Below, one piece after another: positions 4,285 to 50,765 of a stretch of 63,870 nt of DNA (within the stretch, counting starts at the first letter, position 1; each line of letters starts with the position of its first letter). A model generated the notes under the pieces. That model ran no database searches. It worked only from the letters and a program-made list of their open reading frames with translations, and was not told where the DNA came from. Origin of the DNA: Oculatellaceae cyanobacterium bins.114. Lineage in GTDB: Bacteria; Cyanobacteriota; Cyanobacteriia; Elainellales; Elainellaceae. The DNA is taken from positions 1-63,870 of the forward strand of contig JANRJA010000067.1 of the NCBI GenBank assembly GCA_033764315.1. Reading direction: 5' to 3'. The translations under genes were made by a program, and so were the position numbers.

Positions 4285-4851
4285 AGTCATGAAGTCATGA
4301 AATTATAGATTAACGGCAACTGAGGGCTGCATTTCAGAGAGAACATCACCCATTCAAGGCGATCGCCCCACTGAGAAAACGGCTTTGCACCGTCCACCCA
4401 TCGTTCATAAATGGCTACCTTCAAATACGTCTCTAGAGGTAGAAGAATTTGGCACAGAAGGGATTGATTCAGCGTCAAAACCCATGAGGATTCATAGATC
4501 CTTCCACACTAACCCCTAAAATCAGGGCACCTAGCTTGTTTAGGGAAATGGCCTCACATCAGTCTGCTTCTCTCGTACTAGCTTCCACAAAATCCCATTC
4601 AAACCCTTTTTCACAACCAACTTTACTAAACCAGCATGAATTATAAAAATATGTCCAATTCACCCCAAAATATTCCCCTCGCTATAGATGTATGGCAAGT
4701 GATTCAGGCTAGTCTGCTGAATAGTAATCTGATCGAAAGCGGTTAGCGTGTGTCCCATACTCGTTCGTGGATCACTCGTTCGTGGATCAACAGGATCCAA
4801 TCCTCAAAAAACAAATCATTAGATAAAGCAGATGCATCGGGGAGTAGGTCT

Positions 4852-6708
4852 GTGAACTTCTTAAGTTTATTTCGATCAGCTACCCCCAAAACTCTTTTGG
4901 GAGGACGCTACAAAATTGTTGGAGAGCTTGGAGCTGGTGGCTTTGGGCAAACGTTTTTGGCGGAAGATTTACATCTGCCAGGACATCCTCGCTGTGTCAT
5001 CAAACGGCTTCAACCTCAATCTACCGATGCACATAATTTACAGATCGCTCGTCGCCTCTTTGAGAGCGAAGCCAACGTACTTTATCAACTGGGAAATCAC
5101 GATCAAATTCCACGGTTGCTGGCGCACTTTGAAGAAGATGACGAATTTTATCTAGCTCAAGAACTGATCGTTGGGCAACCCCTAAACCATGAGCTAATAA
5201 CCGGAAAACCCTGGACAGAAGCACAGGTCATCGCTTTGTTGCAAGACATTTTAGGGGTTTTAGTCTTTGTCCATCAAAAAGGGGTGATTCACCGAGATAT
5301 TAAACCCGCTAATCTAATTCGGCGACATCACGATCACAAAGTTGTCTTGATTGACTTTGGAGCCGTCAAGCTCGCCAGTACAAACCTGATCGATCCCCAT
5401 TCAAAACCCACTCAGACAATCTCCATTGGCACTCATGGTTACATGCCCAACGAGCAGATTGCTGGCAATCCTCGCTTTAGCAGTGATATTTATGCCGTTG
5501 GCATGATTGGGATTCAAGCCCTCGTTGGCACAAACCCTAAATTGCTGTCAGAAGATCCTAAGACTGGAGAAATTCAATGGCGACATCTACTCCCTAGTCT
5601 CACCTCAGACCTGGTAGATGTCATTGAGAAAATGGTGCGCTATGACTTCCGCACACGATACTCTTCTGCCACAGAAGCCTTAGAGTCAATACAAAGCATT
5701 CCTGTTCCTGAAATAGAGGTCGATTCAGTCCCTGTTACTCCTGTTCAGGTAAGTTTCGTCCGGCCCCTCAATGACACGGCTCCGATCGCCTCGACCTTAC
5801 CTCAAGCCAGCACTGTCTCTTGGGCACCCATCCTCTCAACCTCTGCTCTGCCCCCGGCCTTCAGTCGCATGTTGACGATTCCATTGCGGCAAACTCGCAG
5901 TCAAAAAGCGGCTCCTCCTCCGACCTTACCCGGTTTGAGCCAACCCCGTCGCTCCTCTTCTAAAGGGTTAAGCCAGATCAGGTTTCCTATCTTAAAACCC
6001 CTCTCTCTCTCATTTATCGGTGTGGCAGTGCTAAGTACAGCGATGTTTCTCACTAAATCAGATGGATTGCTTCAAGGCACTCCAACGACGCTAAGTATGC
6101 CACTCGTCAGTTCTGGCATTTCATCTCTTGTGAAGTCAACAACCCAAGCTACACCTCTGATTGCCAAGGCGAATCAACTGCGTGAAGAGAAGGATTTTCA
6201 AGGGGCGATCGCTCTCTATGATCAAGCCATTGCGCTCAATGAAAACGATGCACCCGCTTATTGGGGCAAGTGTTATAGCCTCAATGCTTTGACAAAATTC
6301 GCAGAAGCGATCGCCGCTTGTGATACGGCCCTTAAGCTTCAACCCGATTACCCAGAAGCGTTTTGGAGTAAGGGTTATGCCCTGGAACAACAACACCAAT
6401 ACGACAATGCTTTGGTTTTGTATAACAAGGCAACCGATTTGCGCCCTGACTTTGCCGAAGCCTGGAGTAATAAAGGAACTGTTTTATTGCAACTGAAACG
6501 ATTGCCAGAGGCGGCCACAGCATTTGACCAGGCAACCCAGCTCAATCCTAATTTGGCAGAAGCCTGGAACAACCGGGGAGTCGTATTGTGGAATTTACAG
6601 CGGTTTGACGAAGCGATCGCCTCCGTCGAACGTGCTATTCAAATTCAGCCTAACTATCAAGATGCTCTCAAACTACGGCAACAGATGCGTCAGCTACGGG
6701 AGCAGTAA
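4852..6708 (+). CDS. Ser/Thr protein kinase with transmembrane segment and C-terminal TPR repeats
   Basis: LGAGGFGQTFLA, VIK, HRDIKPAN, DFG; hydrophobic segment LSLSFIGVAVLSTAMFL; TPRs (AWSNKG, AWNNRG); GTG 4852 has GGAG upstream (ORF track starts 4750). Confidence 0.93.
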   Translation: MNFLSLFRSATPKTLLGGRYKIVGELGAGGFGQTFLAEDLHLPGHPRCVIKRLQPQSTDAHNLQIARRLFESEANVLYQLGNHDQIPRLLAHFEEDDEFYLAQELIVGQPLNHELITGKPWTEAQVIALLQDILGVLVFVHQKGVIHRDIKPANLIRRHHDHKVVLIDFGAVKLASTNLIDPHSKPTQTISIGTHGYMPNEQIAGNPRFSSDIYAVGMIGIQALVGTNPKLLSEDPKTGEIQWRHLLPSLTSDLVDVIEKMVRYDFRTRYSSATEALESIQSIPVPEIEVDSVPVTPVQVSFVRPLNDTAPIASTLPQASTVSWAPILSTSALPPAFSRMLTIPLRQTRSQKAAPPPTLPGLSQPRRSSSKGLSQIRFPILKPLSLSFIGVAVLSTAMFLTKSDGLLQGTPTTLSMPLVSSGISSLVKSTTQATPLIAKANQLREEKDFQGAIALYDQAIALNENDAPAYWGKCYSLNALTKFAEAIAACDTALKLQPDYPEAFWSKGYALEQQHQYDNALVLYNKATDLRPDFAEAWSNKGTVLLQLKRLPEAATAFDQATQLNPNLAEAWNNRGVVLWNLQRFDEAIASVERAIQIQPNYQDALKLRQQMRQLREQ

Positions 6709-11866: not shown

Positions 11867-12154
11867 TTTTGAGCCTGCATAAAACGGTCATCCGATCAGG
11901 AAGAGGGTATCAAAACCTCACTTGAATTTGTCCTTTTAAGCCCTTATGTAAAGTGAGTCTTTAAGGTTATCCAAAGACTGGATTAAGTTTTTGACTTGGA
12001 GTTCCTCTCAGTAGGGCAGATCGGTTTTAGTGGCTTAAGGCAATTGCTTGCACTCGTGTCCCGGCTTCGGGCTTTTGCTTGACTGCAACAAACAGATTTG
12101 GTTGTATTGCTACCTCAACACCAACTCGTACCCCCCTGCTTAGGAGTTAGTGTG

Positions 12155-14125
12155 ATGCCTCTACCCCCTTCTTCTCACGCGGCACATTGCATCAATCCCC
12201 ATTGCCCTCGTCCTTATCCTCAGTTATGGAGCGATTTGCAATGCCCTCACTGTGACACTCCTCTAAGACTGCACAATCGTTATATTCCAATACAATGGTT
12301 GAAACAGGGGCATAGCATTCATCTCTATCTGGTTTATGACCCAGAGACTAATACCGAGAAGATAATGCGATTGCTGGTGGCGATCGCCCCTAAAGCAAAA
12401 GAAATTTTTGAGCGGGAGGTCGCTGCCCTTAGTAACCTGCATCACCGAGGATTACCCAAGATTGAGGCTTCTGCCTATTTTCACATTACTATTCGTCATC
12501 CCTCTGCGATGTCCCTTCCTGGCGTGGTGATGGAAAAGGTAGAGGGATCGAGTTTACAAGATGTCATCACCCAATATCCACAAGGCTGCTCTGAAGCCTG
12601 GGTGATAAATTGGTTTCGGCAAACAGTGCTGATTTTACAAAAACTCCATAGCCGCCGCTTGCTGCATCGGGATTTGAAACCGTCAAGCTTGATATTGAGG
12701 CAGGGTAGCCCACAAATCGCGATCGCCGATTTTGGCTTTCCTAAATCCATGCTCTCTGATGAATCCACCCAACCTCTTTCGGGGGGCTATATTCCTCCAG
12801 AGCAAGTGCGAGGAGAATCGATTGGCCCCAGTGCCGACTTCTATGCGTTGGGTCGCATTTGCATTCACCTTTTAACAGGGCGGCATCCCTTGACTCTAGA
12901 AGATGAAACTGGAGCCTTGCAATGGAGACAACGAATCAGAGTACAACCAACCTTTGCCAATTTGCTCGATCGCTTAGTGCAAAAAGAAATGCGGTTACGC
13001 CTGCACACCGCAACGGACATTTTAGATGAGTTAAATCGTACTCCTACCAAGGCACCCTCTGCCCCTTTGCCGCTGCCGTCGCCTGTCAGTCCTCCCCCGT
13101 CAAAATCTCCTGGCATGCCTATCAGTTCACGCTCTAGTGGTCATCCTTCAGGAGGTGCTAGCAAAGGGTCTACAACCAGTGGAAGTGGCAAACTGGTTGC
13201 AATGGCTCGCACCGCGACTCGATCTAAACCGAAGTCTTACCATTCCAACTCGAGTGGTGGGGCATACATTCGAGGTGGCAACTCATCGAGTGGATCACGC
13301 ACCAAACCCCGATCAACTCCCAGCTCAAGCGGGCGTTATCGAGACGATCCACATCCCCAAAATTTGATGAGTGGTCGCCCAGAGCCAAAAACGTTTAGAA
13401 CCCGGATGACAAGCGCGATCGCCGTAGTTGAGCACGCCCAAGACTGGCTGGTGCAGGTGAGTGTTGTGCTGTTCCGAGCTATAGTGTATGCCTGCATTAG
13501 TGCCATGTTGGCTGCGGGAGTAGGGTTTTGGGTCGTGTATTGGTCGCCCCTATCTCCTTATTTCACCGCTTTTTTTGCCCACCAATTGGCATCTCCTGAC
13601 GTGCCACTCGTCGTTAGGCCCGCCATGATTGTGTTTGCCTTTGCAGGCGTAGGCACCACTTGGGGACTGACTCAAACTCAAAATCTAGAAACCCAGCGAC
13701 TGCTTTGGCGACGACGGGCTTTAGGTGGGCTGGTGTATGCGATCGCCTGGTTAGCGTGGCAGTGGGGAACGGTTGGCAGTGCGGGAGTGAGCGGCGTTAT
13801 GCGGTGTATAGTGGCGATCGCGTTGGGTATGGTGTTTGTTTTAGGATCACGGGGCAACGTGTTAATTCAAGCCCTTGTTGCCACCGTAGGAACATCCTTA
13901 ACGTTCACCAGTTTGATGCAGTCAACTGTTTGGCAACCGGGTGACTTGTTATATCTGTTTCAAACCGCCAGAAATTTCATTCCAACTGAGGCGATTTGTG
14001 TGTCAGCGATCGCCTTCTTTGGGTTATTAGGAGTAGTGTTCAGTTTTTGGCTAGGTTTTAGCTACTACGTCGGCACACCGTGCTTAGAACAACTTGGCCG
14101 ATTTGCCAGACGTCTTTTTGGGTGA
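12155..14125 (+). CDS. Ser/Thr kinase-like membrane protein with N-terminal 4-Cys domain (probable pseudokinase)
   Basis: CINPHC..CPHC zinc-ribbon prefix; HRDLKPSS, DFG, GYIPPEQ, ADFYALG; Ser/Gly/Pro linker; several C-terminal TM helices; AGGAG before ATG 12155. Confidence 0.88.
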   Translation: MPLPPSSHAAHCINPHCPRPYPQLWSDLQCPHCDTPLRLHNRYIPIQWLKQGHSIHLYLVYDPETNTEKIMRLLVAIAPKAKEIFEREVAALSNLHHRGLPKIEASAYFHITIRHPSAMSLPGVVMEKVEGSSLQDVITQYPQGCSEAWVINWFRQTVLILQKLHSRRLLHRDLKPSSLILRQGSPQIAIADFGFPKSMLSDESTQPLSGGYIPPEQVRGESIGPSADFYALGRICIHLLTGRHPLTLEDETGALQWRQRIRVQPTFANLLDRLVQKEMRLRLHTATDILDELNRTPTKAPSAPLPLPSPVSPPPSKSPGMPISSRSSGHPSGGASKGSTTSGSGKLVAMARTATRSKPKSYHSNSSGGAYIRGGNSSSGSRTKPRSTPSSSGRYRDDPHPQNLMSGRPEPKTFRTRMTSAIAVVEHAQDWLVQVSVVLFRAIVYACISAMLAAGVGFWVVYWSPLSPYFTAFFAHQLASPDVPLVVRPAMIVFAFAGVGTTWGLTQTQNLETQRLLWRRRALGGLVYAIAWLAWQWGTVGSAGVSGVMRCIVAIALGMVFVLGSRGNVLIQALVATVGTSLTFTSLMQSTVWQPGDLLYLFQTARNFIPTEAICVSAIAFFGLLGVVFSFWLGFSYYVGTPCLEQLGRFARRLFG

Positions 14126-30599: not shown

Positions 30600-30637
30600 A
30601 GCCTCAGGTTCTTTATGAATCTGGGGCTTTTGTTTTG
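30600..30637 (+). terminator. Intrinsic terminator after tRNA-fMet
   Basis: AGCCTCAGGTTC-ttat-GAATCTGGGGCT stem followed by TTTTGTTTTT. Confidence 0.7.
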
Positions 30638-30812
30638 GCATGAGTTTTGGGATGAATTTTGTTTTGGGAATAGTCGTCATGACCCTGTAGCGATCGCCCA
30701 AAACGGGGAATCTGAAATAGTCATCGTAAATTTCTCAAAAATTGACATCTTACCGGGTCAGTTTGCCACTTTACCGTTGAGAATTAAAGTATCCTCATTC
30801 ATTTCTGGATTC

Positions 30813-32300
30813 ATGGCGTTCGCAACACGGCAACCAATCCTCTTTGGTGGTTTAGGGTTAACCTTCAGTTTGTGGCTTCTTGAGAGCTTGCACCCCAGCA
30901 CAGTCTATTTGGGGGGCAGTCTCGTGTGGGCAGCGATCGCCCTGGGTTCTGGCTTTTGGTGGTTTAAGCAGCAGCTTTTGCCGTCTAAACCGGATTTAGC
31001 TCCATTGCCCGTCGATCGCTCCGCTGTTGAAAAAGAGTTAGCCAGTGTTGAGCAACGCATTCAATTTCTGGCAACGGAACTGCCTGACTCCAAAATCGAT
31101 AGCACTGCCTTAATTGCAGGATTGCGTCAACAACTTGCCTGCCTCACCACCGACCTCGATCGCAAACAAGCTCGACTGGCCATTATGGGGGGCAAAGGGG
31201 TTGGCAAAACCACCCTGACTCAACGGCTAGCCTCTCGCTTAGCTCCAGATAAGGTGGCATCAGCTACGGATAAGCCAGCAGCAACCACAGCAACGAATGA
31301 GTCGAGTGTCGGATTAGGCGCAACCGATATTGCGGAAGTCTCTAAAAAGGATCTGGTGGTGTTTGTCGCCGCTGGCGATTTGACGGATTCAGAGTTTCAA
31401 GCGGTAAATCAGTTACTCGATCGCCAACAGCGAGTGTTGATGGTGTTGAACAAACAAGATCAATACCTGCCCGATGAGCGGATGCAAGTCTTGCAACACC
31501 TGCGCGATCGCTTTCAAAACCGCATTGCCGCCGAGGATGTCGTGGCGATCGCCGCTCAACCTGCCCCTATTAAAGTGCGCCGTCATGCCGCCGATGGCAC
31601 CCTCCAAGAATTTGTGGAGCAAGCTGCCCCTAACCTCACCACTTTGACAGAGCGAGTTGGCAGCATTTTGCAACAAGAGGGACAACGCCTGGTCTTAGCC
31701 ACCGTGATGCGGCAAGCCAGAGCCTTAAAAGCAACGATTCAAACTGAACTGAACCAGATTAGACGCGATCGCGCCCTACCGTTGATTGAGCAGTCTCAAT
31801 GGATCGCCGCTGCAACTGCGTTTGCTAACCCTGTTCCCAGTCTGGATTTGTTAGCAACGGCAGCGATTAATACCCAACTGGTGATGGATTTAGGCGCAAT
31901 CTATCAACAATCCTTTTCGTTACAACAAGCCAAGACCGTTGCTGGAAATTTGGCAGAGGTGATGGTCAAGTTAGGGTTAGTGGAATTGTCGAGTCAGGCG
32001 ATCGCCCCTCTGCTGAAGAGTCACGTTCTCACCTATGTGGCGGGCGGGTTGTTGCAGGGCGTCAGTGCCGCCTATCTAACGCGCATTGCTGGACTCAGCC
32101 TTATTACCTATTTTGAGGAGCAGAGCTTGTTACTAGAGGCAGGGTCAGAACCCGCCTTCCAACTCGATCGCCTGACCCAAAAGCTCAAAGCGGTTTTCCA
32201 GGACAATCAGCGCACTGCCTTTTTGCAAACGCTAGTGCAGCAGGGAATTAGTCGGTTGATGCCAGAAGCCCCGGCTCAAGCCTCGTTGCCTTCCGCTTAA
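30813..32300 (+). CDS. YcjF/DUF697-family membrane protein with degenerate GTPase domain
   Basis: Two N-terminal TMs, GGKGVGKTT, GDLTDSE, NKQD, AFANPVPSLDLLATAAIN, LQGVSAAYLTRIAG; start MAFATR at 30813. Confidence 0.85.
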   Translation: MAFATRQPILFGGLGLTFSLWLLESLHPSTVYLGGSLVWAAIALGSGFWWFKQQLLPSKPDLAPLPVDRSAVEKELASVEQRIQFLATELPDSKIDSTALIAGLRQQLACLTTDLDRKQARLAIMGGKGVGKTTLTQRLASRLAPDKVASATDKPAATTATNESSVGLGATDIAEVSKKDLVVFVAAGDLTDSEFQAVNQLLDRQQRVLMVLNKQDQYLPDERMQVLQHLRDRFQNRIAAEDVVAIAAQPAPIKVRRHAADGTLQEFVEQAAPNLTTLTERVGSILQQEGQRLVLATVMRQARALKATIQTELNQIRRDRALPLIEQSQWIAAATAFANPVPSLDLLATAAINTQLVMDLGAIYQQSFSLQQAKTVAGNLAEVMVKLGLVELSSQAIAPLLKSHVLTYVAGGLLQGVSAAYLTRIAGLSLITYFEEQSLLLEAGSEPAFQLDRLTQKLKAVFQDNQRTAFLQTLVQQGISRLMPEAPAQASLPSA

Positions 32301-32372: not shown

Positions 32373-32568
32373 GGAAAAAGGCGTAGCGATTGGTGTGATT
32401 TCCCGGTTCCTAGCCTCTGATGTGGCATGACAAGACGGAACCCTCTAACGAGAGGGAAATCCAAAATCTCAAATCCAAAATCTCAAATCTAAAATTGCGA
32501 CAGGTCTTTCTCGTGTGGGAGAAATCTGCGGTAATCTTATGGCAATCCCAGTGAGTTGTTTGCCCCCA

Positions 32569-34155
32569 ATGGCTATGCCTGTCAGCAACGCCCCTGATCA
32601 TCGGTTGCACATTTTTATTAGCTACAAACGGAGTGTATCTCCCGATGAAGCGGTCGCGCTGGAGGTGTTTAAGGCACTCAGCGAAGACTACGAGGTGTTT
32701 ATTGACCAGACAATGGTGGTAGGCACCCTGTGGGCAGAGCGAATTGAGGCAGAACTGAGGCGATCGCACTTTCTCATCTCTTTCCTCACCCATTACTCCG
32801 TCACCAGCGAGATGGTCAAAGGCGAAATTGAAACCGCCCATCATTTGAGCAAGCAACACGGGAAACCTATTATTCTCCCGGTGCGGTTAGCCTATCGAGA
32901 ACCCTTTACCTATCCCCTCAGTGCCTACCTGAACGGCATCAACTGGGCATTTTGGGAGAGTCCGACCGATACCCCCCGGTTGATTCAGGAATTGCGGCAA
33001 GCGATCGCCGGAGGCAGCCTTTCCATCAGCAGCGATCGCGCCAAATCTGGTACAGACGCGATTAATCGCGTCTCTGCGTTATCTTCTAATGCAGATTCGA
33101 CGAATCGTGTCTCTCTTCCACCGCCTTTACCATCTGCCCAACCGCTCTCTCTGGAAATGCCAGAGGGCACAATGGATGCAGAGTCGCAGTTCTATGTCGC
33201 CAGAAGCAGTGATGCGATCGCCCTGAATGCCATCCAAAAACAAGGCGTCACGATCACTATCAAAGGCCCACGCCAAATGGGCAAAAGTTCGCTGTTGATT
33301 CAGGTGGTGGATGCGGCGATGAACGCTGATAAACGGGTCGCTTTTCTCGACTTTCAACTGCTAGACACCACCACGCTGAGCCATGCCGATGCCTTCTTTC
33401 GGCAGTTTTGTAGCTGGATCACCGAGCAAATGGAACTGCCCGATCGCGTGGAGGAGTATTGGCGGGATGGTTCAGGCAATAGCCTGCGCTGTACGAATTA
33501 CATCAAGTCCTATGTGCTCAAGGAATTGGGTGCGCCCCTGTTGCTGGCGATGGATGAAGTCGATCGGATGTTTGAAACCGATTTTCAATCCGATTTTTTT
33601 AGCATGTTGCGGAGTTGGCATAATGGTCGTGCTCTGCCCACAACCCGTATTTGGCGCAAGCTCGATCTGGCACTCGTCACCGCCACCGAACCCTATCACC
33701 TGATTGAGAACATGAACCAATCCCCGTTTAACGTGGGTGAGGTGATTACCCTGACGGATTTCACCACCGAGCAGGTGACGGCACTCAATCAAAAGCATGG
33801 GTCGCCGTTTAACCCCACTCTGGAGCAGCAGTTCATGGACTGGGTGAATGGGCATCCCTATCTGGTGCGACGGGCACTCTATCTGGTCGCCAGCGGGCAA
33901 TGCACCGTAGAAAACCTGTTTGCTCAGGCAACCGCTGACCGGGGTCCCTTTGGCGATCATCTGCGCTATCACCTGTTTCGCATTAGCGATCGCCCCGATT
34001 TGCTTCAGGGGTTGCAGCAGGTGATTCAACATCAAACCTGTGGCGACTCACGGGTATTGCGTCTGTTGCGGGCGGCGGGTCTGGTCGATAGCCAGACCAT
34101 CACACCTCGCTGTCGGCTCTATGCGGAGTTCTTTGGGGAGCGGTTGCATGGCTGA
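32569..34155 (+). CDS. TIR domain + AAA_35 (STAND-like P-loop NTPase) protein
   Basis: TIR: IFISYKR..VFID..SEMVKGEI..IILPVRL; NTPase: FYVAR, Walker A GPRQMGKSS, Walker B LLAMDEVD, SPFNVG, GHPYLVR; start uncertain (32539/32569/32575). Confidence 0.9.
   Translation: MAMPVSNAPDHRLHIFISYKRSVSPDEAVALEVFKALSEDYEVFIDQTMVVGTLWAERIEAELRRSHFLISFLTHYSVTSEMVKGEIETAHHLSKQHGKPIILPVRLAYREPFTYPLSAYLNGINWAFWESPTDTPRLIQELRQAIAGGSLSISSDRAKSGTDAINRVSALSSNADSTNRVSLPPPLPSAQPLSLEMPEGTMDAESQFYVARSSDAIALNAIQKQGVTITIKGPRQMGKSSLLIQVVDAAMNADKRVAFLDFQLLDTTTLSHADAFFRQFCSWITEQMELPDRVEEYWRDGSGNSLRCTNYIKSYVLKELGAPLLLAMDEVDRMFETDFQSDFFSMLRSWHNGRALPTTRIWRKLDLALVTATEPYHLIENMNQSPFNVGEVITLTDFTTEQVTALNQKHGSPFNPTLEQQFMDWVNGHPYLVRRALYLVASGQCTVENLFAQATADRGPFGDHLRYHLFRISDRPDLLQGLQQVIQHQTCGDSRVLRLLRAAGLVDSQTITPRCRLYAEFFGERLHG
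33050..33114. repeat. Palindromic REP-like element in-frame in the TIR-AAA linker
   Basis: GTAC-AGACGCGATTAATCGCGTCT-CTGC plus a degenerate second copy GCAGATTCGACGAATCGTGTCTCT. Confidence 0.8.
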
Positions 34156-37100
34156 GCCAACACAGCCTGGAGCTGACCCGCATGGATATAGTGATCCGAA
34201 CGTCTACACCGTCGGTGGCACGGTGCAAACCAACGAGCAGGGACTCTACCTGGCTCGTCCTGCCGATGCGGAATTGCTGCATCTGTGTCGGCAGTCCGAC
34301 TTTGCCTATGTGCTCACCCCCCGACAGATGGGCAAGTCGAGCCTGATGATTCGTACCGCAGAGGAGTTGCTGGAGGAGGGCAGGCAGGCGGTGATCATTG
34401 ACCTGACTCAGATCGGCACCCAGGTCAGCATAGACGAGTGGTATCGGGGATTGCTCACCGTCATTGCCGACCAATTGGAACTGAGCGTTCCCATTAGCGA
34501 TTGGTGGCAGAGTCACCGCGATCTGGGGGTGACTCAACGGTTGACCCAATTTTTTCAGGATGTGGTGATGACCGAGGTAGAAGCTCCTCTGGTGATCTTC
34601 GTGGATGAGATCGACACCACCCTCAGCCTCGACTTTACCGACGACTTTTTTGCAGCGATTCGCTTTCTCTATGTGGCACGGGCGACCCAGCCCGACTTAC
34701 GGCGACTCTCCTTTGTGTTGATTGGGGTGGCAACTCCCGGCGATCTGATCCGTGACCCCAAACGCACCCCCTTTAACATTGGGCAGCGGGTGGACTTGAC
34801 CGACTTTACCGCCGATGAAGCATTGCCACTGATGGCGGGTCTGGGATTAGCTGCCATCCAAAACCAGGAGGTGTTGGGGTGGGTGTTGAAGTGGACAGGG
34901 GGACACCCTTACTTAACGCAGCGGTTGTGTCAGGCGATCGCGCAGGTAGGTGGGGAGAATTGGAGCGAAGCAGAGGTCGATCGCCTTGTCACCCGCACGT
35001 TTTTGGGGGCGATGAGCGAGCAAGACAACAACCTGCAATTTGTCCGCGATATGTTGACCAAACGGGCACCGGAAGAGGTGGGAGCCGTTGCCATTCTCAA
35101 GACCTATCGCCAGATTCGGCAGGGCAAACGCCCAGTGCTGGATGAAGAACAATCTCTGGTGAAATCGCACCTGAAACTTGCTGGCATTGTGCGCCGTCAG
35201 GGACGCAGCTTGCAGATCCGCAATTTGATCTATCGCCAGGTATTTGACTGGGACTGGATCAAGACTCACCTGCCCGAAACCCTATGGCAACGGCTAAAGC
35301 CTGCGATGCCGTTTATTGTGGCGGCTCTGTTGATTGCGGCGATGATGACCGGGTTGTTCTTAGAAGCCCAAACGCAACGAGCCAGGGCAGAAGGGGCACT
35401 CCAAACCGCGAAAGAGCAGACTGAGTTAGCCCAAATGAATGAAAAAACTGCCGCAAGCAATGCACTGAAAGCAGCAAGGAATGCACGGGAAGCCGAGCGG
35501 CAACGCGATCGGGCTGAACAAGCCCTCGATGATGTTAAAGAGCAGGCTAGAATCGCTCAACAGGCACTCAACGACGCAAAAGAGCAAGCCGAAAACGCCC
35601 GACGGAATGCAGCGGAGGCACGACGACAAAGGGATGAAGCCACTCGTCAGCGAGTGGTGGCAGAACAGCAAACGGAGATCGCCCGACGACAAACCGAAGT
35701 CGCCACCCTGCGGGAAAAAGCCGCTGTCGTGTTGAACTGGTTGCCGACTGCCAGGGTGGTGGATGGTATGGTCATGGCGATTCAAGCAATGGGTGAGGTG
35801 ATTGCACAGAGACCAGAGGTGGCAAAACAGGTGTTGACCCCGGTGCAGTCGAGTTTGTTGGCAGCCGTTCAAAGCGTCAAAGAGAAAAATCTGCTGCTGG
35901 GACACACCGCTGCGATCTTGTCCGTCGCCTTTAGCCCGGATGGACAGACGATCGCCTCTGGCAGTAGTGACAACACGGTGCGGCTGTGGAACTTACAAGG
36001 GCAGCCTATCGGTCAGCCCCTTCATGGACACACCGATACTGTCAATTCCGTCGCCTTTAGCCCGGATGGTAAGACGGTCGCCTCTGGCAGTAGTGACAAC
36101 ACGGTGCGGCTGTGGAACTTACAAGGGCAGCCTATCGGTCAGCCCCTTCATGGACACACCGATACTGTCAATTCCGTCGCCTTTAGCCCGGATGGACAGA
36201 CGATCGCCTCTGGCAGTAGTGATAACACGGTGCGGCTGTGGAACGTGCAGGGGCAACCCATCGCTCAGCCCTTCCAAGACCACGCATCTGGGGTCTTGTC
36301 CATCGCCTTTAGCCCGGATGGGCAGACGATCGCCTCTGGCAGTAGTGACAACACGGTGCGGTTGTGGGATTTGCAGGGGCAGCCCATCAGTCAACCTTTC
36401 CAGGGCCACACAGCTTCTGTCTCTTCGGTCGCCTTTAGCCCGGATGGGCAGACGATCGCCTCTGGCAGTTGGGACAACACGGTGCGACTATGGAACTTAC
36501 AAGGACAGCCTACCAGTCAGCCCCTCCAGAGACATACTGGTCTTGTCTGGTCTGTCGCCTTTAGCCCGGATGGGCAGACGATCGCCTCTGGCAGTTATGA
36601 CAACACGGTGCGACTATGGAATTTACAAGGGCAGCCCATCAGTCAACCTTTCCACGGACACACCGCTCAGGTCTTGTCCGTTGCCTTTAGCCCGGATGGC
36701 AAGACGATCGCCTCTGGTAGTAGAGACAACACGGTGCGGCTGTGGGACTTACAAGGGCAGCCCATCAGTCAGCCTTTCCACGGACACACCAATGCTGTCT
36801 TTTCCGTCGCCTTCAGCCCGGATAGACAGACGATCGCCAGTGGCAGTTGGGACAACACGGTGCGGCTGTGGAACGTGCAGGGGCAGCCCATCGGTCAGCC
36901 CTTCTACGAACCCGCTGCTGTCTTGTCCGTTGCTTTTAGCCCGGATGGGAAGACGATCGCCTCTGGCAGTGCTGATAAAACGGTGCGGCTGTGGAACTTA
37001 CAAGGGCAGCCCATCGGTCAGCCCTTCGAAGGACATACCGATACAGTCTGGTCGGTCGCCTTTAGCCCGGATGGGAAGACGATCGCCAGTGGCAGTAGGG

Positions 37101-37774
37101 ACAACACGGTGCGGCTGTGGAACTTACAGGGGCAGCCGCTCGGTCAGCCCTTCCTGGGACATACCGCTTATGTCAATTCCGTCGCCTTTAGCCCGGATGG
37201 ACAAACGATCGCTTCTAGCAGTGCTGACACGACGGTGCGACTGTGGAATGTACAGGGACAGCCCATCGGTCAGCCCCTCCGACATGCGTCTGTTATCTTT
37301 TCCGTCGTCTTTAGCCGGGATGGACAGATGATCGCCTCGGGCAGTGGGGACAACACGGTACGGTTATGGGATTTGCAGGGGCAGCCTATCGGTCAGCCCT
37401 TCCAGGGACATACCGCTTCTGTTGTGTCCGTCGCCTTTAGCCCGGATGGGCAGACGATCGCCTCTGGCAGTTGGGACAACACGGTGCGGCTGTGGACTCT
37501 CGATGGCACCCCCATCGGGCAACCGTTTCAAGGGCATACAGCTGAGGTCTTGTCGGTGGCGTTTAGCCCGGATGGGCAGCGGATTGTCAGTGGTAGTTTT
37601 GACCAGACGGTGCGGCTATGGCACGGTTCCTGGCAGGGGTGGCTCCAAGTGGGCTGCAATCGGCTGCGGCAACATCCGATCTTCCGCCATCCCGATGAGA
37701 GTTTTGACCCGGTGGTGGTGCGGGGGGCGATTGAGGCGTGTGAGCGGTATGTGTGGCAACGGATGGGCAACTGA
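34148..37774 (+). CDS. AAA_35 NTPase - transmembrane helix - coiled coil - 14x WD40 repeat protein
   Basis: YTVGGTV, Walker A TPRQMGKSS, Walker B VIFVDEID, TPFNIG, WTGGHPYLTQ; TM MPFIVAALLIAAMMTGLFL; Ala/Glu/Gln/Arg coiled coil; 14 GH..WD repeats; ATG overlaps the upstream stop by 8 nt. Confidence 0.93.
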   Translation: MAEPTQPGADPHGYSDPNVYTVGGTVQTNEQGLYLARPADAELLHLCRQSDFAYVLTPRQMGKSSLMIRTAEELLEEGRQAVIIDLTQIGTQVSIDEWYRGLLTVIADQLELSVPISDWWQSHRDLGVTQRLTQFFQDVVMTEVEAPLVIFVDEIDTTLSLDFTDDFFAAIRFLYVARATQPDLRRLSFVLIGVATPGDLIRDPKRTPFNIGQRVDLTDFTADEALPLMAGLGLAAIQNQEVLGWVLKWTGGHPYLTQRLCQAIAQVGGENWSEAEVDRLVTRTFLGAMSEQDNNLQFVRDMLTKRAPEEVGAVAILKTYRQIRQGKRPVLDEEQSLVKSHLKLAGIVRRQGRSLQIRNLIYRQVFDWDWIKTHLPETLWQRLKPAMPFIVAALLIAAMMTGLFLEAQTQRARAEGALQTAKEQTELAQMNEKTAASNALKAARNAREAERQRDRAEQALDDVKEQARIAQQALNDAKEQAENARRNAAEARRQRDEATRQRVVAEQQTEIARRQTEVATLREKAAVVLNWLPTARVVDGMVMAIQAMGEVIAQRPEVAKQVLTPVQSSLLAAVQSVKEKNLLLGHTAAILSVAFSPDGQTIASGSSDNTVRLWNLQGQPIGQPLHGHTDTVNSVAFSPDGKTVASGSSDNTVRLWNLQGQPIGQPLHGHTDTVNSVAFSPDGQTIASGSSDNTVRLWNVQGQPIAQPFQDHASGVLSIAFSPDGQTIASGSSDNTVRLWDLQGQPISQPFQGHTASVSSVAFSPDGQTIASGSWDNTVRLWNLQGQPTSQPLQRHTGLVWSVAFSPDGQTIASGSYDNTVRLWNLQGQPISQPFHGHTAQVLSVAFSPDGKTIASGSRDNTVRLWDLQGQPISQPFHGHTNAVFSVAFSPDRQTIASGSWDNTVRLWNVQGQPIGQPFYEPAAVLSVAFSPDGKTIASGSADKTVRLWNLQGQPIGQPFEGHTDTVWSVAFSPDGKTIASGSRDNTVRLWNLQGQPLGQPFLGHTAYVNSVAFSPDGQTIASSSADTTVRLWNVQGQPIGQPLRHASVIFSVVFSRDGQMIASGSGDNTVRLWDLQGQPIGQPFQGHTASVVSVAFSPDGQTIASGSWDNTVRLWTLDGTPIGQPFQGHTAEVLSVAFSPDGQRIVSGSFDQTVRLWHGSWQGWLQVGCNRLRQHPIFRHPDESFDPVVVRGAIEACERYVWQRMGN
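35900..37621 (+). repeat. Intragenic tandem array of about 126-bp WD40 units (14 copies)
   Basis: Near-identical units, e.g. GTCGCCTTTAGCCCGGATGG and GACAACACGGTGCGGCTGTGG recurring every 123-126 bp. Confidence 0.95.
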
Positions 37775-37855
37775 TATGCGATCGATCGGGTCTATTTGGC
37801 AAACGGATGGGCGGTGGATAAGGGGTGATGGGGCGATGGGGTGATGCAAAGATTA

Positions 37856-37886
37856 GGCAGAGACGCGATTAATCGCGTCTGTACGG
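37856..37886. repeat. Palindromic REP-like element (left border of TA array)
   Basis: GGCAG-AGACGCGATTAATCGCGTCT-GTACGG. Confidence 0.8.
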
Positions 37887-37943
37887 GAAAGAAGAGAAAG
37901 GCGATGCAACGCAGTTCTCCTCTTGGGGGTAATCATTCTGTGA

Positions 37944-38273
37944 TCAGGACAATGGTTCTAGACGTTCAATCAGTTGTGGAATCGATCGAGTCGCAGCATT
38001 CCAAACTTCACTTAGATCCACCGCATCATACGCATGAATCAAAATATCTCGCATCCCTGCCATTTTTTGCCGGGGAACGTCAGGATGATTTTCCCGAAAG
38101 GTTGCTGAAAGTCGTTTAGTTGCTTCTCCAATGATCTCTAACTGCCGCACAACCGCTGATTGACACATTAAGTCAGCTTCAAAAGCATCCCAATCTCGAC
38201 CTGCCAAAAATGTTTCAATCAAATGGGCGGCTGCCAAAATATCAGTCACATAATCCAGATCACGAGGCGACAT
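37944..38273 (-). CDS. hepT: HepT/DUF86 HEPN ribonuclease toxin
   Basis: QSAVVRQLEIIGEATKRLS and RX4HXY motif MRDILIHAY; overlaps the upstream MNT gene. Confidence 0.9.
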   Translation of the reverse strand: MSPRDLDYVTDILAAAHLIETFLAGRDWDAFEADLMCQSAVVRQLEIIGEATKRLSATFRENHPDVPRQKMAGMRDILIHAYDAVDLSEVWNAATRSIPQLIERLEPLS

Positions 38274-38571
38274 AAATAGGTTTGGCAGACTCCAAAATGG
38301 CTTGACGACGGCGAACGTTTCGGCTTCGCTCAATGCCTCGACGGCTCACTAAATCGACCTTCCGTCCAAATAAATGCCTCAGCTCATCTTGCATATCCAC
38401 GTGATCAAACAACGTCCAGGTTGAATCAGGAGCAAATGTAACTAGCACATCTACATCGCTATCTGGACGAAAATCTGCTCGAAGAACTGACCCAAACAGC
38501 GCAAACTCCACAATCTCCCAACGCTGGCAAAACTCAGCAATCTTTTTTTGAGGAATGTCAATGTTTGGCAT
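38260..38571 (-). CDS. mntA: Minimal nucleotidyltransferase (MNT) antitoxin
   Basis: LFGSVLRADFRPDSDVDVLV = GSX10DXD; LFGRKVDLV. Confidence 0.92.
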   Translation of the reverse strand: MPNIDIPQKKIAEFCQRWEIVEFALFGSVLRADFRPDSDVDVLVTFAPDSTWTLFDHVDMQDELRHLFGRKVDLVSRRGIERSRNVRRRQAILESAKPIYVAS

Positions 38572-38673
38572 AGTAGACAAGACGCTAATATTACCGATCT
38601 AACTGTAACCGAGAATGATAGAGAGAGGGCGGTGAAAGGATGAAGGATGAAGGATAAAAAAGAAAGAAGAAGG

Positions 38674-38755: not shown

Positions 38756-39055
38756 ATGGGAAAAGTCAGGCTTAAGAATACCGAACTTGTCACGCTCCAA
38801 TTGCCCATTGAGTTGTATCAAAAGCTGCGATCGCTAGCCGTAGAGGGACAAACAGACCCAGTTGAGGTCATTGCCCGTTTGGTTACAGATGCTCAACGGC
38901 GAAGAGCCTGGTTACAAGATTTGGCTGCGCTGCGCCAGCAGATTCAAGCCGATGGTGGGCTGCAACTGGGCGATCGAGAAGAACGAGTTGAACAATTACG
39001 GCAGACTCGGCAAGAAATTTTTGAAGCAGAATATGCACATTTGTATCGACAGTAG
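38756..39055 (+). CDS. Putative antitoxin (RHH-like N-terminus) partner of PIN protein
   Basis: VTLQLPIELYQKLRSLA..DPVEVIARLV strand-helix-helix pattern; overlaps the downstream PIN gene by 23 nt. Confidence 0.7.
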   Translation: MGKVRLKNTELVTLQLPIELYQKLRSLAVEGQTDPVEVIARLVTDAQRRRAWLQDLAALRQQIQADGGLQLGDREERVEQLRQTRQEIFEAEYAHLYRQ

Positions 39056-39458
39056 TGCTTTTATCGTTGGATTAGAGGGCAGTGACCCAGATGCGATGCA
39101 AATCCTGGAATGGGTAGGCAGTGATCTCAATCTAATGATTCCTCGCCTGGTTGCTCAAGAAGTCACTCGGAATCTAAGACAATCAGAACAAGTACGGCAG
39201 TTTTATAAGCTGTTTCAGAATTATCCATTTGCTCAAATCATTGATGAACCTGTCCCAACCCATTTGGTTAAGCAGTATGTCAGTTTAGGTCTACCTGCTA
39301 AGGCAGATGCTTTTATTGGTGCTTTTGCAGAGTGGACTAATGCCCGTTACCTGATTTCTGAAAATCGCCACTTCCTTCGCGATCTCACAACAAAAGCTTT
39401 TCAAGTGGTCGATCCTACTGAATTTGTGAGGCTATGGAATTCGCAAGATGAGGGGTAA
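39033..39458 (+). CDS. PIN-domain (VapC-like) ribonuclease
   Basis: MHICIDSSAFI, VAQEVTRNL, ADAFIGAFA, YLISENRHFL acidic PIN pattern; start MHICID at 39033. Confidence 0.8.
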   Translation: MHICIDSSAFIVGLEGSDPDAMQILEWVGSDLNLMIPRLVAQEVTRNLRQSEQVRQFYKLFQNYPFAQIIDEPVPTHLVKQYVSLGLPAKADAFIGAFAEWTNARYLISENRHFLRDLTTKAFQVVDPTEFVRLWNSQDEG

Positions 39459-49640: not shown

Positions 49641-50765
49641 ATGAGTATGAAAGCGATCGCAACACTGCTCACCGGAGCGTTATCACTAGGTGCAACCCAA
49701 ATCGTGACACTGGTTTGGCAACTAGAGGTAGACACACGCGGCACAGAGGGCACCATTGAGGCAGCCGAATTTGCCAAGCGCGATCGCCTGATCGTGACAG
49801 GCAGTGCCAACGGCAAAGTTAGTGTCTGGCAACAATCGGATCACCAACTCGTGTGGCAGAGCGACTATTGGGATGGCTCGACCGACGGCAAAACAGGCGA
49901 AGTCGAGGCAGTCACCTTCTCCCCCGATGGGGCATGGGTCGCCGCAGGTGGCAACTCAGACGGCATCAAAATCTATCGGGGCAGGGATGGTGACTTGGTC
50001 GCTGAGTTGGGGGGCGATGGAGCTGATGGCATCGCCTTCTCAGATGACGGACGATACTTTGCGGCTCCCGACAAACGCACCGTACACCTGTATGACCCCA
50101 GCAATTGGGAACGAAATGACGAGTTTCGGGTGCGCCATGACTGCGAGGTCAACTCGATTGACTTCAGCCATGACAATCAATACATGTTGACCGGGTCGTG
50201 CGATAGAACGGTGCGCATCACGCGCATAGAAGACGGGGAGTTGGTGCGACGCATCGAAGCGGCTGAGGAAGGCGGCTCAGTGAAATCTGTGCGGCTGTCT
50301 CCGGATGGTCAATGGATCGCCACGGGTAACGGACGTGAAGGAGTTGTCAAGATTTTCCGCTTTGAAGATGGCGAGTTAGTGGCTACGCTCAACCATCCAG
50401 GAACCAATGTTGAAGCCGTCGCCTTTTCACCCGATGGACGTTATCTCGCGACTGGGGGAGGCGATCGCGAAAATAATGACCCCAGTGAACACACGAGTTT
50501 TAGAATTTACCGAGTCGATGGCTTTGAACTGCAAGATCAAATCATTGCTCATGCAGAAGGAGTCGAATACCTCGATTTCTCGCCCGACAGTGCCTATCTG
50601 CTTTCGGCTGGAGAAGATGGCATTCTCAAACTCTGGCAACTCAACGAACAAACCACCAATGTGACCTTCTTAACAACCGTAATCGTCTCAGGAATTGGTG
50701 TTTTGGGCATCGCAGGGGCGATCGCTGTCTGGTTTAGAGACAAAAGGCTAAAGGCTAAAGGCTAA
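49641..50765 (+). CDS. WD40 beta-propeller protein with N-terminal signal-like segment and C-terminal membrane anchor
   Basis: About 7 divergent WD40 blades (FSPDG motifs); C-terminal TTVIVSGIGVLGIAGAIAVWF-RDKRLK. Confidence 0.85.
   Translation: MSMKAIATLLTGALSLGATQIVTLVWQLEVDTRGTEGTIEAAEFAKRDRLIVTGSANGKVSVWQQSDHQLVWQSDYWDGSTDGKTGEVEAVTFSPDGAWVAAGGNSDGIKIYRGRDGDLVAELGGDGADGIAFSDDGRYFAAPDKRTVHLYDPSNWERNDEFRVRHDCEVNSIDFSHDNQYMLTGSCDRTVRITRIEDGELVRRIEAAEEGGSVKSVRLSPDGQWIATGNGREGVVKIFRFEDGELVATLNHPGTNVEAVAFSPDGRYLATGGGDRENNDPSEHTSFRIYRVDGFELQDQIIAHAEGVEYLDFSPDSAYLLSAGEDGILKLWQLNEQTTNVTFLTTVIVSGIGVLGIAGAIAVWFRDKRLKAKG

Follow-up and report, generated by a model that had tools for sequence, protein, structure and literature searches.

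A TIR–AAA_35 gene overlapping a membrane-anchored AAA_35–WD40 gene in a cyanobacterium: a widespread pair and probable two-chain AAA+/TIR signalling module

How could a signal from outside a bacterial cell reach a cytoplasmic TIR domain if the sensor and the TIR domain were carried by two different proteins? This question is raised by two overlapping genes of Oculatellaceae cyanobacterium bins.114, here called gene 1 and gene 2, on contig JANRJA010000067.1 (assembly GCA_033764315.1); positions refer to the 63,870-nucleotide stretch of this contig that was analysed (the window). Gene 1 encodes a TIR domain followed by a nucleoside triphosphatase (NTPase) of the Pfam family AAA_35, and gene 2 encodes a second AAA_35 NTPase followed by a predicted transmembrane (TM) helix, a helical stalk and WD40 repeats. 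An earlier description of the locus, made from the DNA letters without database searches (the sequence-only reading), had seen in it a receptor split over two chains, in which a ligand outside the cell could bring both NTPases together and switch on the TIR domain inside. From the analysis reported here, the gene pair is real, widespread and apparently uncharacterised, and it looks like a two-chain transmembrane AAA+/TIR signalling module. The architecture given in the sequence-only reading stood in every detail, while its interpretation is supported in part.

The open frames that span the two genes extend over 32515-34155 (+) and 34040-37774 (+). The start of gene 1 is uncertain, with in-frame candidates at GTG 32515, ATG 32539, ATG 32569 and ATG 32575, and its first dozen residues show no conservation in the alignment of its relatives. 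The 8-nt overlap of the two genes was confirmed, with ATGGCTGA as the shared bases, and the junction is, to judge by this layout, of the translational-coupling type. The hidden Markov model (HMM) searches that had been suggested matched TIR_2, AAA_35 and WD40, all above cut-off; for AAA_35 (PF14516) the gathering cut-off is 27 bits and both genes pass it. The two AAA_35 domains share 30% identity (E 4e-34) and the Walker A (PRQMGKSS) and Walker B (hhhhDE) motifs, in agreement with the homologous P-loop domains described before. Likewise, gene 1 does have an N-terminal TIR domain that keeps the Glu of SEMVKGEI, and neither Pfam nor the sequence gives it a TM helix or a sensor domain, while Pfam, hydropathy and AlphaFold2 together give gene 2 its one hydrophobic helix, its helical stalk and its WD40 repeats. 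The stalk has weak matches only, to the coiled-coil models Borrelia_P83, JetC, DndD and PspA. The coordinates are collected in Table 1.

Table 1. Positions of gene 1, gene 2 and their parts in the window
Feature	Positions	Strand	Details
Gene 1, A-type subunit (TIR + AAA_35)	32569..34155	+	528 aa from ATG 32569
TIR domain, gene 1 residues 15-130	32611..32958	+	TIR_2 61.1 bits, cut-off 28
A-type AAA_35 NTPase + helical + winged-helix module, gene 1 residues 197-523	33157..34137	+	AAA_35 356 bits
Overlap of gene 1 and gene 2, ATGGCTGA, 8 nt	34148..34155	+	gene 2 ATG at 34148, gene 1 TGA at 34153-34155
Gene 2, B-type subunit (AAA_35 - TM helix - helical stalk - 14 WD40 repeats - C-terminal tail)	34148..37774	+	1208 aa
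B-type AAA_35 NTPase module, gene 2 residues 33-366	34244..35245	+	AAA_35 129.4 bits
Predicted single TM helix AMPFIVAALLIAAMMTGLFL, gene 2 residues about 386-405	35303..35362	+	hydrophobic 19-mer, Kyte-Doolittle mean (KD) 1.81
Charged helical or coiled-coil stalk, gene 2 residues about 406-530	35363..35737	+	from sequence; in the model the helix runs on from the TM helix
14 WD40 repeats, gene 2 residues about 574-1159	35867..37624	+	14 Pfam stretches, 592.5 bits

We, first of all, consider the pairing of the two genes in other bacteria. Relatives were scored for gene 1 (2713/8000 at E <= 1e-3) and for the N-terminal module of gene 2 (3943/8000). Contigs of equal length turned up repeatedly in the two sets of close relatives, with 17 such coincidences counted by eye. 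Loci were collected with a B-type module profile, at one genome per species; of 616 stretches matched, 551 could be confirmed, and the 80 best of them form the set used here, so that pairing is counted from the B-type domain, i.e. for B genes with or without an A partner. These loci belong to Cyanobacteria, Chloroflexota, Acidobacteriota, an Armatimonadota-like group (Chthonomonadaceae), Verrucomicrobiota, Myxococcaceae and a few Proteobacteria. An adjacent A/B pair was found in 70 of the 80 loci (70/74 among those with at least 1 kb of upstream DNA), and the pairing across genomes on which the sequence-only reading depended is thus conserved; as it recurs in 70 of 80 independent loci, the arrangement is far beyond chance. 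Of the 85 B genes in these loci, 67 have an A gene directly upstream on the same strand, with a median distance of 27 nt from the A stop to the start of the B domain (60 nt or less in 45/67). The A gene lies directly downstream in four cases, is divergent in one and convergent in one. Partners are missing for six B genes with less than 1 kb of upstream DNA and for six with 1 kb or more; by locus, the upstream DNA of the ten pairless loci is short in L001, L037, L044, L059, L061 and L074 and present in L036, L040, L066 and L071.

These counts bear directly on the simplest alternative, i.e. that gene 1 and gene 2 are independent neighbours without functional coupling. Orphan B genes do exist, with unrelated neighbours in L036 and L066, which speaks against coupling, and other AAA_35 subfamilies occur singly on cyanobacterial plasmids. 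This alternative is nevertheless contradicted by the adjacent pair kept in 70/80 loci of several phyla, and stop/start overlaps, A-B fusions and a complementary content, with outputs only on A and sensors only on B, argue in the same direction, so that we consider independence very improbable.

The two types are also separated in their NTPase domains. HMMs built from the fetched relatives split A from B, with scores of 236-626 for the own type and 91-172 for the other (full-length domains), and a tree of 62 A and 67 B domains gave an exact A/B split with a support of 1.0 on a branch of 1.8. On this phylogeny, the output-bearing A and the sensor-bearing B domains are two cleanly separated paralogous clades and their pairing is old. 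The A and B distance matrices are correlated (Mantel r 0.88 over 49 loci, a value reached in 0/2000 permutations), but such a correlation is expected from shared descent alone and is confounded as evidence of coupling. Among the 374 fetched proteins, six carry A and B domains fused in one chain, in the order B-TIR-A (P0090, P0098, P0263), A-B-B (P0264, P0272) or B-B-A (P0259), and 64 carry B-B tandems. Many relatives have two or three full B modules in tandem, and some have one full module with four or five partial matches behind it (noted in P0124-P0129, P0243, P0252, P0256 and P0258). In L028 and L029 an A gene is followed by a B-B-TM protein; L030 (3998-11698) holds two A/B pairs back to back on opposite strands, and L075 (2-15018) three B-type and two A-type genes inside 15 kb. 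With the B-type profile, 13,853 representative clusters of a 1.84-billion-protein library were matched at E <= 1e-3, 10,515 at 1e-10 and 6,502 at 1e-30, counts that at lower scores take in A-type and other AAA_35 subfamilies.

Overlaps of the kind seen in the window are not rare. Among 57 close co-directional pairs, the window included, 15 allow an 8-nt overlap between the A stop and a B start and 17 allow one of 4 nt, where the nearest possible start was taken, which favours small gaps. On the plasmid pIAD-21 of an Abditibacteriota bacterium (L082, AP024153.1 23792-28178) the 8-nt overlap is found between two annotated coding sequences; this pair is flanked by two xerC recombinase genes. Other plasmid copies differ in state and order. 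The gene order is B then A on a Chlorohelix plasmid, and a plasmid of Nostoc flagelliforme (L083, NZ_CP024791.1) carries a degraded pair with a CHASE2 fragment, split by IS5 and flanked by IS481 and IS630 transposases. A tblastn search of plasmids with the A-type module gave 39 records. Three of them exceed 50% identity and are true A-type, and the remaining 36, at 29.5-39.5% identity, represent AAA_35 of other kinds or in degraded form. In the H4 plasmid record a truncated A-type remnant stands beside a B-type gene.

Both NTPases of the pair look active, given that their Walker A and B motifs are conserved in the A and B alignments. The residues concerned are G238-K239-S240 and D329-E330 in gene 1 and G62-K63-S64 and D153-E154 in gene 2. 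The Walker A Lys is kept in 81 of the 82 A rows, the Walker B Asp-Glu is invariant in A, and in the 67 B rows all of them are invariant. The Pro of a GGHPYL motif is invariant in both alignments, in a region that we compare with the GxP-type motif of the STAND helical domain. The AlphaFold2 models of gene 1 (predicted local distance difference test, pLDDT, 91.0; predicted template-modelling score, pTM, 0.84) and of gene 2 residues 1-430 (pLDDT 92.0, pTM 0.83) were compared with the PDB by Foldseek. The top match of gene 1 is the plant TIR-NLR RPP1 (E 1e-8), followed by two archaeal Walker ATPases, 2qen (with a target TM-score of 0.65) and 2fna, and by ORC/Cdc6, MalT, CED-4, NRC3, Sr35 and Avs3/Avs4. 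The gene 2 module matches 2qen, RuvB, ORC/Cdc6 (including the Cdc6/Orc1 heterodimer 2qby) and 2fna, then Avs3 and CED-4. From these matches AAA_35 is, by its modelled fold, an AAA+ NTPase with a helical and a winged-helix module and belongs to the ORC/Cdc6-STAND assemblage. The label 'NLR' used for the pair in the sequence-only reading is therefore loose, as ORC/Cdc6, RuvB and archaeal Walker ATPases match as well as or better than NB-ARC and NACHT. Sequence searches of the solved structures were uninformative for the family placement, as gene 1 matched RecA at the P-loop level only and the B-type profile matched LptB at E 0.3. The effector, NTPase and sensor that a STAND protein combines in one chain are here distributed, with the output on gene 1 and the sensor on gene 2, and this split is the rule in 70/80 loci.

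What is joined to the two NTPases varies greatly. Pfam was run on the 70 A-type N-termini, 49 of which contain TIR_2, alone or behind another domain. The domains ahead of TIR_2 are CHAT (12), protein kinase (Pkinase, 9), trypsin (2) and, at single loci, a cyclase (L023), ParA (L010), EAD7 (L033) and bDLD1 (L048); EAD7 in L011 is below the cut-off. Further domains ahead of TIR_2 are a second TIR (L055, L080), BTAD (L064), BTAD with a kinase (L038) and a LuxR helix-turn-helix (HTH) domain in the second pair of L075. Among the 21 N-termini without TIR_2, 14 have a DNA-binding domain, 12 times Trans_reg_C, alone or together with BTAD, and twice an XRE-type HTH, and an OmpR-type winged helix-turn-helix (wHTH) is one of the A-type outputs; the other seven have a kinase only (2), trypsin only (1), CHAT only (1) or no family (3). 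The A-type tree, with 62 tips and 15 states of the N-terminal label, requires at least 26 changes of this label, and gene 1 of the window nests within CHAT-TIR forms. Its 120 closest relatives comprise 95 CHAT-TIR-A, 23 TIR-A and two B-TIR-A proteins, the extra ~200 residues of the relatives being N-terminal.

The B C-termini are diverse as well. WD40 arrays of at least four repeats were found by our own HMM in at least 32 of the 85, and 30 others were scanned with Pfam. The domains found are CHASE2 (L004, L006), PD40 (L028, L054), TPR (L017, L028, L039, L045), LRR (L035), PEGA or CarboxypepD_reg (L051, L068, L076, L078), CARDB (L038), peptidase M23 (L037), FGE-sulfatase (L077) and DUF2610 (L016), and further Pkinase (L011), T2SSE ATPase (L030, minus strand), CHAT (L031) and GAF with SpoIIE (L034); ten of the 30 gave no Pfam family. 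In L004 (4999-8193) the B protein is laid out as AAA_35 - TM - CHASE2 - TM helices - serine/threonine (Ser/Thr) kinase, so that a sensor chain may also bear a cytoplasmic output of its own. The expectation that such genes would occur as effector/sensor pairs with swapped effectors is thus borne out and extended, as outputs and sensors are both swapped on a constant pair of paralogous NTPases. With DNA-binding domains on 14 of the 70 A partners, the module would be a general transmembrane signalling device.

The location of the B sensors was approached by a Kyte-Doolittle scan (19-residue window, mean >= 1.6, segment starting no more than 45 residues after the B NTPase). A helix was predicted behind the NTPase in 64 of the 75 B proteins with at least 60 residues past the domain, regardless of phylum. 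As a control, such a segment occurs anywhere in 4/70 A proteins and inside 13/85 B NTPase cores. In the AlphaFold2 model of gene 2, residues 379-429 form one unbroken helix that projects from the globular NTPase. The flanks of the family helices obey the positive-inside rule, with a mean of 3.94 K+R per 15 residues on the NTPase side and of 2.48 beyond the helix (66 proteins, gene 2 of the window among them; N side higher in 45, C side higher in 3, tied in 18; Wilcoxon p 5.5e-9), with net charges of +2.7 and +0.7, respectively. The domains behind the helix are mostly of extracytoplasmic type (CHASE2, PEGA, CarboxypepD_reg, CARDB, PD40, M23), and the 11 B proteins without a nearby helix carry Pkinase, T2SSE, CHAT, DUF2610 (L016), FGE-sulfatase (L077) or WD40 (four), and in the remaining two (L007 and the plus strand of L030) helices lie further downstream. 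Gene 2 itself has the pattern of a single-pass N-in/C-out protein, from its residues 386-405 and the family charge bias. Taken over the family, the sequences favour an NTPase inside and propellers outside, which gives comparative support to the claim that the helix separates the two.

The WD40 array of gene 2 is encoded by a 126-bp tandem DNA repeat of 13.7 copies (35900-37621), and its 14 repeats presumably form two 7-bladed propellers. The repeats have a mean identity of 74%, and their variation is concentrated in five of 43 columns (12, 16, 17, 19, 35), i.e. two to five residues past the GH dipeptide and at the residue preceding the conserved Asp, positions that we take to lie on the top, ligand-binding face of WD40 propellers. 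In repeats 2-14 the ratio of nonsynonymous to synonymous variation (pN/pS) is 1.79 at the variable columns and 0.24 elsewhere, the former being inflated in pN by the choice of columns for amino-acid variability. The array is reminiscent of fungal NLR-like proteins, which have internally conserved, surface-diversified WD40 repeats.

In gene 1, SEMVKGEI occupies residues 80-87 and Glu86 is the candidate catalytic residue. The TIR profile matches Cat1 (E 4.7e-11), AbTIR-like proteins, TcpB, SARM1, TLR and plant TIRs. Glu86 is aligned with the E of DEL, YEL or REL in Cat1, 7uxr and TcpB, i.e. with the Glu of solved TIR enzymes that cleave NAD+ (NADases), which we take to be the catalytic residue of TIR domains. 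This Glu, pointed out in the sequence-only reading, is kept in 61 of the 62 TIR-bearing rows of the alignment, and the closest sequence matches of the TIR domain are the NAD+-cleaving TIRs Cat1, AbTIR and SARM1. By this comparison the gene 1 TIR domain probably cleaves NAD+.

Taken together, these data suggest a two-subunit transmembrane device. The B subunit would be anchored in the cytoplasmic membrane and have its NTPase on the inner side, and the single TM helix and long helical stalk would place the two WD40 propellers in the periplasm, where the variable residues of their top face may bind a ligand. The soluble A subunit would carry the output, here a TIR domain with its putative catalytic Glu. 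A ligand outside would alter the nucleotide and oligomeric state of the B NTPase, which might then co-assemble with the paralogous A NTPase, as the paralogous ORC/Cdc6 subunits or STAND rings do. The TIR domains gathered in this way would cleave NAD+, so as to deplete it or to make a signal nucleotide, and the outcome may be growth arrest, cell death or downstream signalling. We infer the A-B hetero-oligomerisation from gene order, start/stop overlaps and the rare A-B fusions, and the binding of A to B, the ligand-driven assembly, the NADase activity, the ligand and the biological role are likewise drawn by us from the comparative data. As a whole, we lean, if only slightly, towards this reading.

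The same junctions would also fit an opposite logic, in which the membrane-bound B keeps the TIR-bearing A inactive, and a ligand, envelope damage or loss of B frees A to assemble with itself. The 8-nt and 4-nt overlaps possible in 32/57 pairs fit a stoichiometric restraint of a potentially toxic TIR, the A-then-B order (67/85) and the A-B fusions are equally compatible with it, and toxin-antitoxin genes adjoin gene 2. Intact Walker A and B motifs in both NTPases, however, fit active co-assembly better than sequestration, and for the DNA-binding outputs of 14/70 A proteins an activation by assembly is the simpler account. We therefore judge such a restraint to be unlikely.

Several observations weigh against the co-assembly of A and B across a membrane as proposed above. 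As to the topology, the helix of gene 2 is at the low end of hydrophobicity (KD 1.81) and its flanks are weakly asymmetric, with K372, R382 and K384 before it and two Arg after it within 15 residues. WD40 repeats follow B domains without a nearby helix in the second gene of L052 and in three genes of L075, so that WD40 alone is no marker of an outside location, and in L034 a weak helix is followed by the cytoplasmic-type GAF and SpoIIE. As to the TIR domain, the Trp of the TIR WxxxE motif, which in solved TIR NADases stands ahead of the Glu, is replaced by Met in the A-type TIR family, a change that, judged from the alignment, might affect NAD+ cleavage. As to the role, immunity is not inherent to the A/B module, to judge by the DNA-binding domains among its outputs.

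The first group of observations lends some weight to a B helix that serves only as a tether on the membrane's inner face or as a means of oligomerisation, with cytoplasmic WD40 repeats and an intracellular ligand, as in Apaf-1-like proteins or Avs. Besides the helix-less WD40 proteins and the moderate hydrophobicity of the gene 2 helix, the lack of a signal peptide and the position of the helix, 385 residues into the protein, agree with such a tether. On the other side stand the helix in 64/75 B proteins of any phylum, the positive-inside bias and the extracytoplasmic-type domains that follow the helix, while helix-less forms carry kinase, ATPase or CHAT domains. A cytoplasmic enzyme with one TM helix and a sensor outside is, moreover, a known layout: PknB-type kinases have an N-terminal cytoplasmic enzyme, one TM helix and an outside sensor. 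An intracellular sensor is accordingly among the less probable readings, and we rate it below the restraint of A by B.

The replaced Trp would suit a TIR domain that is a homotypic adaptor or scaffold and not a NADase, in a non-immune pathway (envelope, kin or developmental signalling) akin to one-component or Ser/Thr-kinase receptors. The range of A outputs (OmpR-type wHTH, BTAD, HTH, kinases and a cyclase), the CHASE2 domains among the B sensors, and the absence of a defence-island context and of a PADLOC match would all agree with it. The Glu kept in 61/62 rows and the closest matches Cat1, AbTIR and SARM1, which cleave NAD+, speak against an adaptor, as do the WD40 surface positions, which look diversified. 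TIR is also joined to CHAT, trypsin, EAD7 and bDLD1, and in the accessible parts of Kaur et al. 2020 and 2021 these domains, TIR included, are hallmarks of predicted conflict systems in multicellular bacteria. An adaptor TIR has in our view a small probability, similar to that of the restraint.

A stronger form of the preferred reading, in which the pair is an outside-in innate-immune or programmed-death receptor and unites the principles of Toll-like receptors and of paired NLRs, has to be judged separately. Here the periplasmic, surface-diversified WD40 repeats would sense non-self (phage parts, predators or foreign kin), the two AAA+ NTPases would form a hetero-oligomer that switches on the cytoplasmic TIR NADase, and on many occasions the chassis would have been connected anew, to proteases, to kinases and to transcription factors. 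No PADLOC-DB 2.0 model matches either protein beyond noise; traces are PDC-S01 (E 7e-4) over the P-loop and HEAT-ARM_XIII on the WD40 region of gene 2, and the NCBIfam model Thoeris ThcB4 reached 21 bits against a cut-off of 220. PADLOC on the 46 open reading frames (ORFs) of the window gave generic kinase and ABC matches and the nucleotidyltransferase MNT only, i.e. no defence island. Among 128 flanking ORFs of 12 related loci, PADLOC found a clear defence gene in L006 only, for a type III methyltransferase, so that a habit of lying in defence islands is not apparent, in a comparison made without a background control; other matches in these flanks are a TnpB/Cas12f-like gene (L002), a helicase (L017) and generic ones. 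The immune role put forward in the sequence-only reading thus finds no direct support in gene content. These results, too, count against the reading in its immune form. The forms with TIR or CHAT may plausibly serve in conflict or programmed death, and the outputs of wHTH, kinase and cyclase type, along with the missing defence context, show what is, as far as domain content tells, a general signalling chassis. An immune receptor is hence possible, and we rather doubt it.

For the rest, the window has the gene content of ordinary cyanobacterial chromosome and includes genes for CGLD27, RsfS, asparaginase, phosphoribulokinase and a Na/H exchanger. Immediately downstream from gene 2, two overlapping ORFs (37944-38580, minus strand) encode a HepT-like RNase and MNT nucleotidyltransferase toxin-antitoxin pair, the MNT matching PADLOC PDC-S09, and a PIN-domain gene lies at 38862-39458 (+). 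Upstream, a P-loop/GTPase-like domain with DUF697 is encoded on the same strand at 30615-32300, with a 270-bp spacer before gene 1 that contains a 14-bp tandem repeat, AAATCCAAAATCTC (32457-32495; 2.8 copies, 96% matches). The scan for promoters and terminators was at background: it gave 2 promoter-like sites where 2.6 were expected, and 6 terminator-like sites where 5.2 were. The G+C content over gene 2 (34001-38000) is 0.566-0.580, compared to 0.42-0.53 in the rest of the window, which may reflect the composition of the WD40 repeats or a foreign origin. Two Ser/Thr protein kinase genes (4750-6708 and 12098-14125) have strong but generic PD-T4-6 matches in PADLOC, and a separate 374-aa protein (49641-50765) matches HEAT-ARM_XIII, as the WD40 region of gene 2 does.

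The sequence-only reading had named no characterised function for the pair, and the literature searched likewise gave no description of it; survey supplements may list such architectures, and subscription journals lay outside the search. The terms AAA_35 and AAA-like have 0 occurrences in the accessible text of Kaur 2020, Kaur 2021, a 2026 STAND survey preprint and Dore 2024 (PMC10907252). The membrane-associated two-gene 'System 4' of Kaur 2020 was considered as a counterpart and rejected, being, in the accessible part of that paper, EACC1 with a caspase and without AAA_35. A precedent for a membrane-spanning STAND-type sensor is given by the STAND (NACHT/nSTAND1)-CLec sensors, which, as far as the accessible text of Dore et al. 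2024 (PMC10907252) goes, often have two target genes and TIR or CHAT effectors and are in some cases predicted to be periplasmic. These sensors, diversified by diversity-generating retroelements, belong to predicted conflict systems with STAND NTPases, a likeness to the A/B pair in so far as the pair is STAND-like and serves in conflict, and FGE-sulfatase/CLec is found on B-type AAA_35 too; they differ in having NACHT or nSTAND1 and, by the same source, retroelement-driven variation.

The comparison with other known systems places the pair between several of them. Avs1-4 and bNACHT have the same succession of P-loop NTPase, helical and winged-helix domains, with an N-terminal effector and a C-terminal repeat sensor, and their TIR and protease effectors overlap with those of A. 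They are, however, single-chain cytoplasmic sensors, whereas here there are two paralogous chains, a TM helix and a sensor predicted outside, and the NTPase is Pfam AAA_35 and not NACHT or NB-ARC. The AfsR/SARP and MalT regulators resemble the relatives of gene 1 in having Trans_reg_C and BTAD before the NTPase, which we take to be an AfsR-like layout, and MalT is also a fold match; they are single chains with a cytoplasmic TPR/sensor, while here the sensor is on a second, membrane-anchored paralogue. The best fold matches are ORC/Cdc6 and the archaeal Walker-type ATPases (PF01637; 2qen, 2fna), and hetero-assemblies of paralogous AAA+ subunits are known, such as the Cdc6/Orc1 heterodimer 2qby, but AAA_35 is here fused to TIR or other outputs and to TM sensors, and DNA binding is without evidence.

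Plant paired or sensor-helper NLRs (RRS1/RPS4, the NRC network) are likewise two linked paralogous NTPase receptors, one for sensing and one for execution, and RPP1, with its TIR domain and NTPase, is the top structural match of gene 1. Plant NLR pairs are cytosolic, are often head-to-head, and both members usually keep an N-terminal signalling domain, whereas the A and B genes are co-directional and overlapping and the B sensor has no output and is membrane-anchored; the likeness is one of analogy and not of family-level homology. Toll-like receptors have an outside repeat ectodomain, a single TM helix, a cytoplasmic TIR output and the same outside-in logic. These receptors bear the TIR domain on the same chain as the ectodomain and lack an NTPase, while here the repeats are WD40 and not LRR and the TIR domain is on a separate chain, to which paired AAA+ modules would provide the coupling; as ectodomain, TM helix and TIR are divided between two polypeptides, the likeness is a functional analogy only.

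The known bacterial STAND/NLR-like and TIR systems are single chains that sense invaders inside the cell, while in this large family two paralogous NTPases divide sensing and output between them, with a sensor that is probably on the outer side of the membrane. If the preferred reading is right, the pair would represent a new route of bacterial transmembrane signalling, unlike histidine kinases, Ser/Thr kinases and extracytoplasmic function (ECF) systems, and would have parallels in eukaryotes in Toll-like receptors as well as in sensor/helper NLR pairs. The naturally swappable inputs and outputs of the pair would be useful for studies of AAA+ signal transmission and possibly for receptor engineering. 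The gene pair is probably best classed with the STAND-like (STAND/AAA+) sensor-effector systems, from which it is distinguished by its obligate paralogous pair and its probable outside sensor.

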